The notes under the pieces were generated by a model, which was not told the origin of the DNA, did not search any database, and worked only from the letters and a program-made list of their open reading frames with translations. Shown one piece after another: positions 1 through 6,069 of a stretch of DNA of 14,475 nucleotides (position 1 is the first letter of the stretch; every line of letters begins with the position of its first letter). Origin of the DNA: Candidatus Aenigmatarchaeota archaeon (GTDB taxonomy: Archaea; Aenigmatarchaeota; Aenigmatarchaeia; Aenigmatarchaeales; JACQIB01); NCBI GenBank assembly GCA_046760225.1, contig JBHIDR010000019.1, positions 1 to 14,475 of the forward strand, written 5' to 3'. The translations under genes were made by a program, and so were the position numbers.

Positions 1-366
1 GACAGCAAGTTCCTTGCTGAAAAAAGGAAGGAAGACAATGAAATCGATCCAGGAGCCCTTGTGTTTCCCGGAGGACATGTGAAGGAAGGAGAGAGCCTCT
101 TTGGTGCATGCAGGAGGGAGTTCAGGGAAGAGTTCGGCTTGGACTGCGGCACTTTCGAGTTCATATGCACTTTGCCTTATACTGCTTCCAACAACGAGCA
201 GATGGACCTTCACTATTTCTTCTGCAAAGGATGGTCAGGAGAGCCAAAATCCCTTGAAGCAGAAAAACTGGTTTGGCTGGGTCCTGAAGAACTGGAAAAT
301 CTGTCTTTTGACGAGGACAAACAGGCAGTGGCAGAATTTATATTGGCAAAAGGGGAAATATTCTAG
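1..366 (+). CDS. Nudix hydrolase, MutT-like (5' end lies outside the window)
   Basis: Frame is open from base 1 (DSKFLAEKRKEDNEIDPGALVFPGG...). Complete Nudix box GHVKEGESLFGACRREFREEFGL (GX5EX7REUXEEXGU). The TAG stop overlaps the stop of the convergent gene (ctag, 363-366). Confidence 0.9.
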   Translation, partial: DSKFLAEKRKEDNEIDPGALVFPGGHVKEGESLFGACRREFREEFGLDCGTFEFICTLPYTASNNEQMDLHYFFCKGWSGEPKSLEAEKLVWLGPEELENLSFDEDKQAVAEFILAKGEIF

Positions 367-926
367 TCCTTGCTCAATATCAGGTATCTTTTCTTCTTCT
401 TTCCCTTTCCTTCCTCCACCACATACCCGGAAAATAATCTTGAAAGTTCCTTCCTGGCCATTTCCCATTCCTTCTCTGTATGGGGATAGAACTGCAGTCC
501 CACTTTTCCACCTTTCCTGAGCACCCTTCTCATTTCCCTGAAGGCAAGCCTGTACTGCTCAACCACTTCCTCTGGGCTCTTTCCTATTATCCATTGAAGG
601 GTTGAGATGGATACGATTCCATCAAACACACTGTCCTTGAAGGGAAGGGACTTGAAATCAGCAAGCACAACCCTGTCGAATCCCTTCCCTTTGGCTATCT
701 TGAGCATCTCAAGTGAAACATCAATACCAAATGCATTCTCTCCAATGACCTCCATTGAAAAGCCTGTGCCGCATCCTATGTCAAGTATTTTGCCACCAGC
801 CCTCATTTCCTTCAGAACCCTTTCTGTCATCATGTGCTGTATCTTCCTTGTTGACGTGCTCCTTTCATAAGCCTCGGCCTCCTCCTTTGTCCAGTAGCTT
901 TTTGCAGAAATAAGTTTTTCTTTCAT
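363..926 (-). CDS. Class I SAM-dependent methyltransferase, Bud23/WBSCR22-like (putative SSU rRNA guanine-N7 methyltransferase)
   Basis: Motif I ILDIGCGTG, then GIDVSLEML and LPFKDSVFDG. Bud23-type signatures: EEAEAY..ST..KIQ..MTER.L, SISTLQW, GGK..LQFYP and FSG.VV...KKKRYLIL. Starts 4 nt after the aIF2-alpha stop, with a GAGTGAGG SD-like motif. Confidence 0.85.
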   Translation of the reverse strand: MKEKLISAKSYWTKEEAEAYERSTSTRKIQHMMTERVLKEMRAGGKILDIGCGTGFSMEVIGENAFGIDVSLEMLKIAKGKGFDRVVLADFKSLPFKDSVFDGIVSISTLQWIIGKSPEEVVEQYRLAFREMRRVLRKGGKVGLQFYPHTEKEWEMARKELSRLFSGYVVEEGKGKKKKRYLILSKD

Positions 927-930
927 GTCC

Positions 931-1701
931 TCACTCGTATATGAACCTGCCTTCGCCGCCCCCTGCCTTCATTGCCTTTATTATGTCCTCTGCAGCAGCC
1001 CTGAGCTTCTTCTCGTCCTTCTTGGCTTCCTTTGAGAGAATTGAAATAGAATATTTGGGTGCGGAAATGTATTTTATTATGAACCCCTTTTCACCAGCAT
1101 CCTTGAGAACTTTCTTTATTACCTCTATGCCATCGGGCTTGCTGCACGTAAGCTCGAGTATTCCCTTTAGTTCCCTTTCCTTTATTTCCATTGTTTCTTC
1201 TGCCACTTCCCTTATTGTTTTTGCCCATTCCTCGGGTATGCCCCTCTTTATGAGCAGCCTGTAGCCGTCCTCTGTCATGGAAAGCTTGAATACCTTGAAC
1301 ATTTCCCCGAACCTCTCCTTCATCAGGTGTCCCACTTCTTCGTATGCGTCCCTGGTCTCCATACTTCTCTTTTTGGCAGCAATCTCGAGCATCCTTTCTG
1401 CCTTTTGCTCCCTTTTGGCCTCCTTTAGTTTCTCCTCAACATCCCTCTTGCTGACCCTTTTGAGGCTGAGGCCAACATGACCTTTTACAGGATCGACCCT
1501 CATTACAAGAACAACAATCCTCTTCCCTTCCTTGACAAAATCCCTTATGTCCTTTACCCATTTCCTTGCAATCTCGGATATATGTATCATTCCCTCTACG
1601 CCAGGATAATCTTCGAGCTTCACGAATGCGGAGAACGGGTTGACCCTACTTACAGTACCTATTACAAGCTCTCCTCTTCTAGGGAATTTCTTCTCGTCCA
1701 T
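931..1701 (-). CDS. eif2a: Translation initiation factor 2 subunit alpha (aIF2-alpha)
   Basis: N-terminal S1 domain (FPRRGELVIGTV...AFVKLEDYPGVEGMIHISEIARKWVKDIRD...GHVGLSLKRV) and C-terminal DGIEVIKKVL...YISAPKY. 256 aa, downstream of S27e as in the canonical cluster. Confidence 0.97.
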   Translation of the reverse strand: MDEKKFPRRGELVIGTVSRVNPFSAFVKLEDYPGVEGMIHISEIARKWVKDIRDFVKEGKRIVVLVMRVDPVKGHVGLSLKRVSKRDVEEKLKEAKREQKAERMLEIAAKKRSMETRDAYEEVGHLMKERFGEMFKVFKLSMTEDGYRLLIKRGIPEEWAKTIREVAEETMEIKERELKGILELTCSKPDGIEVIKKVLKDAGEKGFIIKYISAPKYSISILSKEAKKDEKKLRAAAEDIIKAMKAGGGEGRFIYE

Positions 1702-1723
1702 AGAAAATCTATTAAATCAGAAG

Positions 1724-1731
1724 CTTTTAAA
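1724..1731 (-). promoter_or_regulatory. Putative TATA box for a leaderless aIF2-alpha / methyltransferase transcript
   Basis: TTTAAAAG on the minus strand, about 23 nt upstream of the ATG at 1701, preceded by an A-rich BRE-like stretch. Confidence 0.55.
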
Positions 1732-2214: not shown

Positions 2215-2246
2215 AACTATCCTTTCCTTTATTGCTTTTAGAAGGT

Positions 2247-2254
2247 ATTTAAAA
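2247..2254 (-). promoter_or_regulatory. Putative TATA box of rpl44e-rps27e
   Basis: CAAAAC-TTTTAAAT on the minus strand, about 33 nt upstream of the ATG at 2214. Confidence 0.45.
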
Positions 2255-2274: not shown

Positions 2275-2727
2275 CTAGTTTTGTTTAATTTTTTCCATTG
2301 CTAATTTTCCAATCTTCTTAACATCGCTTGGTATGTCATGTGAATTCATTAACTCTTCAAGTGTAACCCACCTATGCCCTTTGCTCTCATGTGATAATGT
2401 TACTTTGTCGTTTTTTGCTCTGCATAAATAGAATAAGCATGCATGGTTGTGGTCTCCAACATTGTGAACGTTTGCATAAAAGGGCAGAGCCAGTTGAATA
2501 ACTATACTATCATTTTTATCTTTTGGTATTTCTTCCTTCTGTATAAATTCTGCGTCAATTCCTGTTTCCTCTTTTATTTCGCGTAGAATCGCTTCGTCAG
2601 GTGTTTCATTGGCTTCTATATGTCCGCCTGGGGGCAACCATTTATCTAACTTTGCATGATGAACTAAAAGAATCCTATCATTGTTTATAACATATGCGCC
2701 GATTACTAAATCCGTCTTGCCCTTCAT
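2275..2727 (-). CDS. Nudix hydrolase
   Basis: ILLVHHAKLDKWLPPGGHIEANETPDEAILREIKEETGI Nudix box. Start placed at ATG 2727 (MKGKTD), which has a TTATAAAA box about 24 nt upstream. AT-rich relative to the flanks. Confidence 0.92.
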   Translation of the reverse strand: MKGKTDLVIGAYVINNDRILLVHHAKLDKWLPPGGHIEANETPDEAILREIKEETGIDAEFIQKEEIPKDKNDSIVIQLALPFYANVHNVGDHNHACLFYLCRAKNDKVTLSHESKGHRWVTLEELMNSHDIPSDVKKIGKLAMEKIKQN

Positions 2728-2779
2728 AACGAATAATATGTAAGTCATGCTTTTATAATATATCATTTTCAATATTTGG

Positions 2780-3112
2780 TTACGGCAGATACTTTGGCTG
2801 TTCTCTTTTCGAAGGATTTCTTGGTATTGAGTCTACCCAGCATTCGCCGAGTTCACCGGAAATACCTATGTAAAAGATTCTGTCTTTGGTATAGGCATAG
2901 AAGGGCATGTTGTCATTTGGGTCTAACCTTTCTTTTTTGCCTAGTTTCTCTTCTGAGTTTACAATTTTTCCTTTTATAAAGATGTTCTTGGCCTTTTTTC
3001 TGGAAAGAACTTTAGTCTTACCTTTATGCTGTGCTATTACTTTTTCTATATCCTTCCATGATAAGTTATATCTTTTGAGTTCTTCTTCTAGTGCTTTGTT
3101 TAGAGTTGGCAT
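2780..3112 (-). CDS. Hypothetical protein, 110 aa, basic
   Basis: ATG preceded by AGGTGA, which overlaps the GINS stop. AT-rich. C-terminal PFYAYTKDRIFY...WVDSIPRNP motif. No function recognised. Confidence 0.75.
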   Translation of the reverse strand: MPTLNKALEEELKRYNLSWKDIEKVIAQHKGKTKVLSRKKAKNIFIKGKIVNSEEKLGKKERLDPNDNMPFYAYTKDRIFYIGISGELGECWVDSIPRNPSKREQPKYLP

Positions 3113-3120
3113 ATTATCAC

Positions 3121-3801
3121 CTAGAGGTACATCCTTACGTCTTCTTCAGCGGCCTTCCTTGCTATGAGCACACTTGCGATTTCCTTTGGAAGCTGGACCA
3201 TGTCACCTGCCTTGAAAGGGCCATAGGGCTGGAAGTCTCTGCCAACGAATTTCGGCATCTCTGTAAGTATCTTGACATTCATCTTGTTCGGGTCAGCTGG
3301 TTTTTTTATCGGTTTTGCTGGTACTTCAACTGGCTTTGGTGCTTCCTGCACAGGCTGAGGAGCAGGTTTTTCAACTGGTACAGGCTCCACAATAGCTTTT
3401 GCCTCTTCCAGACTTCTTCTTGCTTCCTCTATTTTTTCCTCAGCAAAGAAGTCTGCTCCGCTCAGCTTCTCCTGCAGATCCAGTTTGAATGACTTGAAGA
3501 GCGTAACAGCCCGGTCAAAGAACTTCTGCTCATCTTCTGTCATGTTCTCAGGAGGCACGCCTCCCCTTATGGTACGCATGGCTGACATTATGATTTTTCT
3601 CTGCCTCCTGTTCATTATGTCGTCAACCTTATCTTTCACTGTTTTCAGTTCCATAATTGAGAGCGGATCTCTTAGGCTACTCTTCTCCCCAAACCATTTT
3701 CCAACAGAATCAAAAAAATCTGGGGGCAGCTTGCTGAGCTGTTCCCTCTTCTCAGCCATATGAACTGTTCTTATGGTCTCAAAGGTTATGAGTTCTGCCA
3801 T
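3121..3801 (-). CDS. gins15: GINS complex subunit, Gins15/Gins51 type (A domain, linker, B domain)
   Basis: N-terminal EK..QLSKLPPDFF...RRQRKII..A....NMTEDEQKFF and C-terminal B domain VKILTEMPKFVGRDFQPYGPFKAGDMVQLPKEIASVLI. Lies directly downstream of the primase. ATG start at 3801. Confidence 0.92.
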   Translation of the reverse strand: MAELITFETIRTVHMAEKREQLSKLPPDFFDSVGKWFGEKSSLRDPLSIMELKTVKDKVDDIMNRRQRKIIMSAMRTIRGGVPPENMTEDEQKFFDRAVTLFKSFKLDLQEKLSGADFFAEEKIEEARRSLEEAKAIVEPVPVEKPAPQPVQEAPKPVEVPAKPIKKPADPNKMNVKILTEMPKFVGRDFQPYGPFKAGDMVQLPKEIASVLIARKAAEEDVRMYL

Positions 3802-3834
3802 AAACAACACTCAATATATCTGCATTGAAACAAT

Positions 3835-5082
3835 TTATCCTTTTCTCTTCTCCCTCATGGCCTTCCTATAGGACCTGAAAGCATAATTAACAGGGTTTTT
3901 CACTTTACCGCAGTTCTCTGTGCATATGCCTATTGACTTGTAAAACAGGTCAGAACCACAGTTTGGCGGCATAATCGCCCTCCTTTGCCTGGAATGCCAT
4001 TTCAGCTGCGTTGTAACAAACCTGTCCGAAAGCCCCACGCTCTTGTTCCATTCCATTACCTTCTTTTCTATGTCATCCCATTGCCAGTTCACTGAGCGCA
4101 GGAAGGATATGAGCGTGAATATCGACCTTTTCCTGCCGTCCTTTGTCCCTTCCAGTATCCTCTTTATGCACACTGGGAAATGCTGCTCTGGTATTGCCCT
4201 CTTTATGCTCACCCTCCTCTCCTTTTTCCTTACCTCTTCCTTCCTGTGCTTTGCTCTCCAGCTGACAGCATCTACCAAAAGATTCTGCGCTTCAAGGTCC
4301 TTGCTAACAAGGAACTTCATCCTTGCCTTCACCTTTTCTGGGTTTGCTGACTCCTTTTTAAATGATTTCAGCTTGAAGAGCGGTATGGGTACAGAAGCCA
4401 GCCATGTCTTGTTGTGCAGGGAATATGGTGCCCTGAACATGTGCCTGCTTCCCCAGTCCTTTTCTATTTCAACAAATTCATAAGGGCTAAGTTCCTTTAT
4501 CTTTCCCACTGTCTTGGTAAGTGCTGCATGGCCCCCTTCCATTCTTATTAGCGAGTCCATTATCTTGTCCCTTGCCTTTTCCCTGATGAATCCGGCAATT
4601 GCCTGGGGTATTTCAGGGTATTGTTGCGCAACAGGCCTGGAATCAACCCTGTTGGGGAATGCATTGCTAGCTATTCCTATATGGAAGCCCCTTGAGCCTG
4701 AGAACTTGACAGTAGGGCTTATTCCCATGTCCTTGAGCAGGTCCACAACAGCAATTGCAGCTGCCCTGGCATGCTCCAGCTTAGCCTTTGCATCAATGTC
4801 TATTATCATGTCCCATTCCTTTCTCAGCTCGTCCAGCTCCTTCCTGCTCATTGCTGACTTCAGGGAGAGCGGATTTGTCCACTTCTCAACAGAGAGGTGG
4901 AACGCCACAACACCGTTCTTTACCCTTTCTATAACATCCCTGGGATACTGGAGCACATCAGGCCTTGATGTGAATGTTCCGTCCCTCTTTGTGCCCCCAA
5001 CTTCCCTCTCCTTTGCAGCCTCAACTATTGTGGCCTGAACATCCTTCCTAGAATAGTATTTTATGAGGTCCAGCTGGTGCAT
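3835..5082 (-). CDS. priSL: Fused archaeo-eukaryotic DNA primase (PriS catalytic domain plus PriL C-terminal Fe-S domain), DPANN type
   Basis: AEP motifs WDMIIDID, KFSGSRGFH and RHMFRAPYSLH, followed by PriL-CTD features with four Cys (FPVC...PPNC...GIC..NC..KNP). Confidence 0.93.
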   Translation of the reverse strand: MHQLDLIKYYSRKDVQATIVEAAKEREVGGTKRDGTFTSRPDVLQYPRDVIERVKNGVVAFHLSVEKWTNPLSLKSAMSRKELDELRKEWDMIIDIDAKAKLEHARAAAIAVVDLLKDMGISPTVKFSGSRGFHIGIASNAFPNRVDSRPVAQQYPEIPQAIAGFIREKARDKIMDSLIRMEGGHAALTKTVGKIKELSPYEFVEIEKDWGSRHMFRAPYSLHNKTWLASVPIPLFKLKSFKKESANPEKVKARMKFLVSKDLEAQNLLVDAVSWRAKHRKEEVRKKERRVSIKRAIPEQHFPVCIKRILEGTKDGRKRSIFTLISFLRSVNWQWDDIEKKVMEWNKSVGLSDRFVTTQLKWHSRQRRAIMPPNCGSDLFYKSIGICTENCGKVKNPVNYAFRSYRKAMREKRKG

Positions 5083-5102
5083 GCATAGAATAAAGCATCA
5101 AA

Positions 5103-5111
5103 CTATAAAAA
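5103..5111. promoter_or_regulatory. Putative TATA element shared by the divergent primase and dys genes
   Basis: CTATAAAAA (reverse TTTTTATAG) in the middle of a 51-bp spacer, about 21-23 nt from both ATGs. GGTGA at 5120-5124 precedes dys. Confidence 0.5.
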
Positions 5112-5133
5112 GGTTAAAAGGTGAATAGGCTTT

Positions 5134-6069
5134 ATGAAGAGGGAGGATTTGCTCAAAAGGAAGGTAGAGGAAATGGACCTTGAGGGAATAAGTGTTTCAG
5201 AGCTCGTCAATCAGATGAATGCTGCTGGCGGCTTCAGTGCAAAGAACCTTGCACATGCAGTGGAGATACTCAGGGAAATGCAGTCTGCAGACAAGAGGTT
5301 CCTCTCGTTCCCAGCATGCATTGTTGCAACAGGCCTTCGCGGAGCAATTGCACAGGCGATTGAGAAAGGGCTTTTCGATGTGATAGTAACAACATGCGGT
5401 ACCCTTGACCATGACCTTGCAAGGACATGGGGAGGGAACTATTATCATGGCTCATTCAGCCTTAATGATGATGAGATGCACCAGCTTGATCTCTACAGGC
5501 TGGGAAACATAACAATACCCACTGAGAACTATGGAAAATTACTCGAGGAAAGGATGCAGCCGATTCTCAAGGAACTCGCAGCAAAGAAGCAGGAGTGGGG
5601 AGCAAGGGAACTGATACACGAGTTCGGGCTTCGCCTCAATGACAAGAAATCCATTTTGTACCAGGCAGCAAGAAAGAACATACCAATATATGTCCCTGGA
5701 ATAGTTGATGGTTCATTCGGCACAAACCTTCTCTGGTTCAGGCAGGAGAACAAGCTCAAGGTTGATGTTCTAAAGGACCAGAAAGAGCTATCAGACATCG
5801 CGTTCAACAGCAAGAATACTGGTGCACTGATGATTGGCGGTGGCATAAGCAAGCACCATACAATATGGTGGAACGCTTTCAAGGGAGGACTGGATTATGC
5901 AGTGTACATAACAACAGCCACGCAATATGACGGTTCGCTCTCAGGCGCAAGGCTGAGCGAGGCAGTCAGCTGGGGAAAGGTGAAGGAAAAGGCCAAGTAC
6001 GTCACAGTTGATGGCGATGCCACGATCATACTTCCGCTGATTTTGGCCTCCCTTTATCAGAAATCTTAA
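5134..6069 (+). CDS. dys: Deoxyhypusine synthase
   Basis: GGFSAKNL, ATGLRG, TCGTLDHD, GGGISKHH, DGSLSGA...EAVSWGK (catalytic Lys) and GDATIILPL. Confidence 0.97.
   Translation: MKREDLLKRKVEEMDLEGISVSELVNQMNAAGGFSAKNLAHAVEILREMQSADKRFLSFPACIVATGLRGAIAQAIEKGLFDVIVTTCGTLDHDLARTWGGNYYHGSFSLNDDEMHQLDLYRLGNITIPTENYGKLLEERMQPILKELAAKKQEWGARELIHEFGLRLNDKKSILYQAARKNIPIYVPGIVDGSFGTNLLWFRQENKLKVDVLKDQKELSDIAFNSKNTGALMIGGGISKHHTIWWNAFKGGLDYAVYITTATQYDGSLSGARLSEAVSWGKVKEKAKYVTVDGDATIILPLILASLYQKS

Follow-up and report, generated by a model that had tools for sequence, protein, structure and literature searches.

The window analysed here is a stretch of 14,475 nucleotides (nt) that makes up an entire contig (C19) of a Candidatus Aenigmatarchaeota archaeon. 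Near its left end, directly after the gene for the alpha subunit of translation initiation factor 2 (aIF2-alpha), lies a gene for a class I S-adenosylmethionine (SAM) methyltransferase, hereafter MT. We conclude with high confidence that MT is orthologous to the catalytic domain of Bud23/WBSCR22, the enzyme that methylates 18S rRNA in eukaryotes to form N7-methylguanosine (m7G), and we hold just as firmly that its gene was inserted ahead of nop10 in a conserved archaeal gene cluster without replacing nop10. What might a Bud23-like enzyme do in an archaeon, and why should its gene sit beside one for an initiation factor? The answer that we favour, set out below with its rivals, is that MT modifies the small ribosomal subunit and shares its location with other genes of the translation apparatus.

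Relationship of MT to Bud23 and a predicted Trm112 partner

Searches with Pfam and NCBIfam place MT among the generic class I SAM methyltransferases only (Methyltransf_11 at 3.5e-19); the closer relationship comes from solved structures. The five best sequence matches in the PDB, obtained with phmmer, are yeast Bud23, human WBSCR22/BUD23 and one entry titled 'Methyltransferase-like protein' (E 1.6e-20 to 8.5e-17), and residues 3-185 of MT align with residues 5-200 of yeast Bud23 at E 1.6e-20, the next enzyme outside the Bud23 group scoring 4e-10. A family profile built from 21 members matches Bud23 over its full length at 2e-48 (167 bits) and the next enzyme over the core only, at 3e-22 (82 bits). 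The fold points the same way. An AlphaFold2 model of MT (predicted local distance difference test, pLDDT, 93.2) has a Rossmann-type order of strands and helices, and Foldseek searches with this model return Bud23/WBSCR22 chains as all of the top 8 matches, with a template-modelling (TM) score of 0.87, a root-mean-square deviation of 2.4 Å and 32% identity, other methyltransferases lying at about 0.69. Five residues of the glycine-rich SAM motif are invariant in the MT family (D49, G51, C52, G53 and G55). So are S106, S108 and P148, while Q111, W112 and Q145 are nearly so, and these last six all align with identical residues of yeast Bud23. An earlier note on this DNA, made from the sequence alone, had called the gene Bud23-like, and the PDB matches, the margin of the profile and the fold bear this out strongly.

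The Bud23 C-terminal extension (Pfam WBS_methylT, PF12589) has no match in MT, which ends at residue 187, and is carried by just one of the 120 rows of the family listing (P0183). This extension is a mark of the eukaryotic form, not of the catalytic domain, and we class MT as a catalytic-domain orthologue because the likeness to Bud23 covers the whole domain and PF12589 is absent.

Bud23 requires Trm112, and the source genome encodes a Trm112 of 54 residues (C20:9010-9171). Among 42 genomes of the order, a search with this short protein as query found Trm112 in 21, comprising all 8 MT holders and 13 of the 34 others, a comparison among kin and not among independent genomes. When the complex of MT and Trm112 was predicted with alignments of both proteins, it scored 0.90, a level that 116 of 157 solved complexes attained, as did 2 of 215 mismatched pairs, and the best control scored 0.00. 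Contacts agreed between runs at 100%, the pLDDT of the partner was at least 91, and the predicted interface sets MT residues 84-101 against Trm112 residues 9-15 and 39-48.

MT thus resembles the Bud23-Trm112 complexes of S. cerevisiae (4QTU/4QTT) and human (BUD23/WBSCR22-TRMT112; 6G4W, 7WTS-7WTW) in a domain that aligns end to end at about 30-32% identity, in the residues around the active site, in a Trm112 encoded by the same genome and in a predicted interface on the same strand region. It differs from the yeast and human proteins in that it has 187 residues without WBS_methylT, follows aIF2-alpha in a prokaryotic operon, and is known here from sequence and models. The Hvo_0019-Trm112 pair (PMC6144793; PDB 6F5Z) is also an archaeal class I methyltransferase with a small zinc-knuckle Trm112, the pairing being a predicted one in the case of MT; Hvo_0019 belongs to a different family, scoring 49.8 bits against 167 for Bud23, with a TM score of 0.60.

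Insertion of MT between aIF2-alpha and nop10

The features that the earlier note had seen around MT, namely aIF2-alpha with its TATA-like box, the 4-nt gap and the convergent gene, are all in place, and S27e and L44e lie upstream of them (Table 1). Its background also holds: the archaeal cluster L44E-S27E-aIF-2alpha-Nop10 (LSIN), together with its link to the PriS, Gins and PCNA genes, is described by Berthon et al. 2008 (PMC2643942). The window resembles this cluster in its genes, in their order and in the primase and Gins genes upstream, and departs from the plain form in that one or two extra genes stand between aIF2-alpha and nop10, both here and in relatives: MT and, here, an inverted Nudix gene as well.

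Where is nop10? The earlier note had found no room for it and concluded that one rRNA-modification gene had taken the place of another. Inside the window there is indeed no room, but this is an effect of the contig end. The source genome (851 kb in 83 contigs, completeness 83%) encodes Nop10 on another contig, C61 (C61:105-260; 54.7 bits, above the family cut-off), with a PAC2-like gene, rpoK and an enolase-like gene coming after it. The start of C61, once reverse-complemented, overlaps the window at positions 1-11 by exactly 11 nt, the sole overlap of at least 10 nt among the 166 contig ends of this genome. C61 also supplies in frame the 16 N-terminal codons missing from the convergent Nudix gene, and the composite protein is collinear with the Nudix protein of a genome of the same genus, G033. 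On C61, nop10 lies 54 nt past the Nudix part, with a TATA-like word at -28..-21, and its start would fall about 455 nt beyond the MT stop on the same strand. Because of the overlap, the Nudix frame and the collinearity with G033, we reconstruct the order on the minus strand of the window, across the contig break, as L44e-S27e-aIF2-alpha-MT-(Nudix, opposite strand)-Nop10-PAC2. The left end of the window is an assembly break, since contigs of three sequencing runs continue beyond position 1 by 3373, 1780 and 2875 nt. Tested as an LSIN cluster, the locus has the four genes in order on one strand, interrupted by MT and the inverted Nudix gene, with nop10 on the abutting C61.

The wider phylum gives the same picture. 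MT, taken as a full-length orthologue at E <=1e-26, occurs in 15 of 371 genomes, and Nop10 was found in all 15 of these holders, against 208 of the 371 genomes overall. Cbf5 was found in the source genome and, with scores above the family cut-off, in 5 of the 5 other holders tested. In five sister Aenigmatarchaeota (G036, G037, G248, G249 and G251) the genes run aIF2-alpha-MT-Nop10, with gaps of 1-4 nt before MT and about 1-20 nt after it, and in three of them (G036, G037 and G251) PAC2 comes next; of the 15 holders, 10 have Nop10 no more than 2.5 kb downstream of MT and on its strand. Gar1 (PF04410) was not found in the source genome, which is 83% complete, in a search whose control rose above the cut-off in only 2 of 14 control genomes. 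The anti-correlation of MT with Nop10, Cbf5 and Gar1 that had been anticipated is thus contradicted by Nop10 in every holder and by Cbf5 here and in every holder tested, and with Nop10 downstream of MT the replacement of nop10 is rejected.

Adjacency of MT to aIF2-alpha is not peculiar to this genome; the earlier note had regarded uniqueness as fatal to its reading, and that outcome did not occur. It recurs in 8 of the 15 holders (G000, G033, G025, G036, G037, G248, G249 and G251), with a gap of 1-4 nt in 7 of the 8 orthologous loci and of 33 nt in G025, which upholds the tight coupling of the two genes; the 1-4 nt junction is kept across families that are about 44% identical in protein sequence. 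Elsewhere MT follows a gene for prolyl-tRNA synthetase (G022), a CxxCxxCC protein (G023) or a DEAD-box helicase (G253), its locus is cut by a contig end in G024, and in G123, G143 and G152 its neighbours are unrelated genes, the last of these genomes, also an aenigmatarchaeote, having MT divergent from an S3/L22 operon. In a maximum-likelihood tree of 39 family members, all of the aIF2-alpha-linked MT genes, together with those of G022-G024 and G253, form one clade (support 85/88). Because all of the linked genes fall in this clade, we count the linkage as one old event; it persists in at least four GTDB families, which belong to two orders, and has eroded in part.

How special is the site of insertion? 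We surveyed what lies downstream of aIF2-alpha at 30 loci of the order. In 19, nop10 follows directly in the plain form, itself followed by PAC2, and we take the plain LSIN cluster as the baseline on account of these 19. Two loci have MT and then Nop10, three have MT with no nop10 directly following, three have neither gene, one ends with its contig, and the remaining two carry another gene between aIF2-alpha and nop10, either a YdjM-like protein or a 185-residue open reading frame (ORF). The space before nop10, which holds Nudix genes as well as the YdjM-like gene and the 185-residue ORF, looks like a permissive insertion site.

The signals around the junction are consistent with joint expression. 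Of 32 related loci, 26 have a TATA-like hexamer at -38..-20 relative to the start codon of aIF2-alpha, against 10, 5 and 2 of 32 in control windows, the loci being kin and not independent and two of the three control windows being partly coding; the box that had been noticed here, TTTAAAAG, is in this way placed above chance. Such a box is also found where S27e is not the upstream gene (L009 and L011). TTTAAAAG is a probable internal promoter, which would give a leaderless or near-leaderless aIF2-alpha mRNA. In 7 of 8 loci just 1-4 nt separate the two genes, a distance into which no promoter for MT alone would fit, and the simplest reading of this spacing would be co-transcription, with coupling from aIF2-alpha to MT by termination and reinitiation. 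A search for sequencing runs that contain this stretch returned DNA contig runs of one study and no RNA run. The Shine-Dalgarno (SD) sequence that the earlier note assigned to MT fares less well: the string GAGTGAGG is present, but its role is doubtful, for its GAGG core ends 2 nt before the MT ATG and GAGG occurs at 3 of the 8 orthologous junctions. The 3' end of the 16S rRNA reads GGATCACCTCC.

Table 1. Features of the left part of the window (contig C19), listed along the minus strand from the upstream context to MT and then the convergent gene.
Feature	Position	Strand	Evidence or remark
Primase with both PriS and PriL matches	5082..3835	minus	Pfam; upstream context
Gins51	3810..3121	minus	upstream context
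ORF of 110 residues, without family	3112..2780	minus	upstream context
Second Nudix gene	2772..2275	minus	upstream of L44e
TATA-like box TTTTAAATA	2246..2254	minus	about 36 nt upstream of the L44e ATG
L44e, ribosomal protein, 95 residues	2214..1927	minus	family searches; stop overlaps the S27e start by 1 nt
S27e, ribosomal protein, 63 residues	1927..1736	minus	family searches
TATA-like box TTTAAAAG	1731..1724	minus	-30..-23 from the aIF2-alpha ATG
aIF2-alpha, translation initiation factor 2 alpha subunit, 256 residues	1701..931	minus	NCBIfam NF003064, 258 bits (cut-off 252); Pfam EIF_2_alpha and S1
SD-like string GAGTGAGG	936..929	minus	overlaps the aIF2-alpha stop codon
Intergenic gap of 4 nt, aIF2-alpha to MT	927..930	minus	aIF2-alpha stop 933..931, MT start 926..924
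MT, Bud23-type class I SAM methyltransferase gene METHYLTRANSFERASE, 187 residues	926..363	minus	
Convergent Nudix hydrolase, 3' part, 121 codons	1..366	plus	Pfam NUDIX 2.9e-14; open at the contig start

The block upstream of L44e, from the primase gene to the second Nudix gene (2275..5082), matches the replication-translation supercluster that Berthon et al. 2008 reported (PMC2643942). At the other end, the MT stop (365..363) overlaps the stop of the convergent Nudix ORF.

Several observations on the H/ACA genes stand apart from MT. Nop10 was not found in whole families of the phylum (0 of 23 genomes in f12, 0 of 9 in f25 and 0 of 3 in f26), many of whose genomes are about 90% complete, which suggests a lineage-wide loss of H/ACA components unrelated to the MT gene. 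The cbf5 gene of the source genome (C20:7489-8453) carries a 38-nt insert that breaks its reading frame immediately behind the codons of the catalytic G-T-L-D motif; removal of the insert restores the frame, and five relatives have an uninterrupted cbf5. Introns spliced from cbf5 pre-mRNA are described from Crenarchaeota (PMC2738675), and the local fold at the insert pairs both exon edges, without reaching significance (z -1.65). The insert may be an intron or a frameshifting error, or it may mark a broken gene. In G033, nop10 follows a gene for a 316-residue methyltransferase resembling protein arginine methyltransferases (PRMT-like) on another contig (L147:544-1494, G033:C23), a gene with no counterpart found in the source genome, and a zinc-finger ORF beyond the Nudix gene on G033:C1 (L118:3625-3756) resembles, as judged by eye, the N-terminus of an insertion sequence (IS) transposase. 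These arrangements suggest that a rearrangement separated nop10 from the cluster in G033.

Proposed role of MT and competing explanations

We propose that a single insertion placed the MT gene in the L44e-S27e-aIF2alpha-Nop10 cluster in the ancestor of the clade, and that MT would since have been co-transcribed and probably translationally coupled with aIF2-alpha. With Trm112 and SAM, MT would methylate, at N7, the guanine of 16S rRNA that corresponds to E. coli G1338 and yeast G1575, acting on late small-subunit precursors. Its location would then reflect co-expression with ribosome and translation genes, and would imply neither a special partnership with aIF2 nor a loss of the H/ACA machinery. 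As a whole, with its orthology, single insertion, co-transcription, target and co-expression, this is the best explanation available and a reasonably probable one; for m7G at the G1338 equivalent as the product of MT, a point argued from homology to Bud23, we would put the chances a little above even.

G1338 and A1339 correspond to yeast G1575 and A1576, and contact G:C pairs of the initiator-tRNA anticodon stem (PMC3950347), as the earlier note had correctly said of G1338. A loose motif search shows that the 16S gene of the source genome retains G-G-A-A at the equivalent site. In the gene itself (C1:40502-46861, minus strand; L148-L151), several large insertions stretch the length to about 6.4 kb, and extra sequence also follows the G1338-equivalent site. 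The universal 1392-1406 motif was not found intact in it, two other universal motifs had no match in the 8-kb locus, and an Rfam alignment of the 3' domain was misled by the large insertions.

The surroundings of MT in other lineages speak independently, if modestly, for MT acting in the translation apparatus. Loci outside the phylum were sought with a generic SAM-motif pattern in 5 of 64 parts of the data, a scan that returned many unrelated methyltransferases along with 7 usable archaeal loci and is not a census. Neither aIF2-alpha nor nop10 lies within 3.5 kb of MT at any of these 7 loci, which belong to other phyla (Woesearchaeota-type, Promethearchaeota and unnamed archaea). Other genes of the ribosome do occur nearby: two Woesearchaeota- or Nanoarchaeota-type loci have L7Ae about 0.4 kb upstream of MT and on its strand, and of five Asgard loci three have S10 one or two genes downstream, two of these three with a radical-SAM gene in between. 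Ribosome-related neighbours (L7Ae, S10 and, in G152, S3/L22) thus recur in unrelated lineages, in keeping with the earlier view that context supports a ribosomal substrate. The radical-SAM gene, of about 340-380 residues, follows MT directly at 4 of the 5 Asgard loci (L040, L042, L039 and L041; about 4100-5360) and may encode a second RNA-modification enzyme.

Could the adjacency to aIF2-alpha mean more than this, or less? The earlier note saw a swap of rRNA-modification systems, with MT in the place of nop10, and a module formed by MT and aIF2-alpha for the selection of initiator tRNA in the P site. MT does occupy the position, directly after aIF2-alpha, that nop10 takes in 19 of 30 genomes of the same order; G1338, the counterpart of the Bud23 target, does touch the anticodon stem of initiator tRNA (PMC3950347); and the short junction has been kept between families whose proteins are about 44% identical. 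All the same, we regard this reading as highly improbable. Replacement is at odds with Nop10 in all 15 holders, directly after MT in five genomes and about 455 nt after it here, and with Cbf5 in this genome and the five others tested; the module, whose sole basis is co-location, is at odds with a linkage that arose once, in one clade, and is absent from all 7 loci in other phyla, as well as with an aIF2-alpha-nop10 slot that elsewhere takes YdjM-like or Nudix genes or the 185-residue ORF. At the opposite extreme, the adjacency might be without functional meaning, the outcome of a chance landing in a gap of a highly expressed cluster and of inertia in small, slowly rearranging genomes, with MT expressed from signals of its own. 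The single origin of the linkage, its erosion in G022, G023 and G253 and the unrelated genes that occupy the same slot in other genomes would fit such an account, which we nevertheless rate as very unlikely too: a gap of 1-4 nt leaves no space for a separate promoter, families that belong to different orders share the junction, and independent lineages also have MT beside ribosome-related genes.

A different kind of alternative accepts the Bud23 fold and changes the substrate. MT might act on a tRNA, another rRNA site or a translation protein, as several Trm112-dependent methyltransferases do, the rRNA target of Bud23 being a eukaryotic specialisation. That MT has no C-terminal extension would suit this idea, as would two points in PMC6144793, where m7G at the G1338 equivalent is not known from archaeal rRNA and many archaeal methyltransferase partners of Trm112 have an unknown substrate. 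We consider it unlikely, if deserving of some weight, because the likeness to Bud23 takes in the entire domain, N-terminal helices and surroundings of the active site included, and stands about 85 bits above that to every other solved methyltransferase; the other solved Trm112 partners come far lower (Hvo_0019, 6f5z, at 49.8 bits; Trm11 at a TM score of 0.62-0.64). Bolder than our preferred explanation, finally, would be the idea that DPANN and Asgard archaea have a working Bud23-Trm112 forming m7G at the guanine of 16S rRNA in contact with the anticodon stem of initiator tRNA, a mark that would then predate eukaryotes, and that in one clade of Aenigmatarchaeota production of the enzyme has become coupled to aIF2-alpha at translation, because the modified P site works jointly with the initiator-tRNA carrier in choosing start sites. 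We think this improbable.

Several points weigh against the explanation that we favour, that of a Bud23 orthologue inserted once, co-transcribed with aIF2-alpha and directed at the G1338 equivalent. The target G is universal, so that a G at the site is uninformative. Lacking the C-terminal extension of Bud23, MT may recognise its substrate differently. The score of the predicted complex may stem from the likeness of MT and Trm112 to the solved Bud23-Trm112 and Hvo_0019-Trm112 structures, and we take it to show likeness and not binding. The linkage with aIF2-alpha is a single evolutionary event, and some members of the clade (G022, G023 and G253) have lost it. The join of C19 to C61 would be as good as its 11 nt, the reading frame and homology, and the likely co-transcription of aIF2-alpha and MT is read from their spacing and a promoter-like box. 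According to PMC6144793, moreover, m7G has not been detected at the G1338 equivalent in any of the archaeal 16S rRNAs studied and no Bud23 orthologue is detectable in archaea; the passages of that paper bearing on this point name no DPANN or Asgard rRNA.

Distribution and significance of archaeal Bud23

MT belongs to a family that reaches well beyond this phylum. Among the 120 rows of the family listing, 19 give organism names, and these include Aenigmatarchaeota, Micrarchaeota, Woesearchaeota, Nanoarchaeota, Diapherotrites and Iainarchaeum from DPANN, Hel-, Odin-, Loki-, Hermod- and Promethearchaeota from Asgard, and one eukaryote. Traces of the family exist in earlier work. A pipeline of the Joint Genome Institute (JGI) has given the name '18S rRNA (guanine1575-N7)-methyltransferase' to 8 of the 120 rows, and in Birikmen et al. 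2021 (PMC8481954) the supplementary Table S10 credits Asgard archaea, and not DPANN, with BUD23, the main text of that paper being without Bud23. Both refer to the same family as MT, but without its gene context, its pairing with Trm112 or its link to aIF2-alpha and Nop10. Ebersberger et al. 2014 (PMC3919561) speak of prokaryotic 'orthologs' that are without one domain, and a literature search found no paper joining Bud23 with Asgard or Bud23 with DPANN.

MT is therefore no new kind of system; it is a catalytic-domain-only archaeal Bud23 embedded in the LSIN cluster. The existence of its family in DPANN and Asgard archaea, in genomes that encode Trm112, contradicts the absence of Bud23 from archaea as stated in PMC6144793. 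Should MT prove active, the eukaryotic machinery for small-subunit maturation would contain a further component of archaeal origin.

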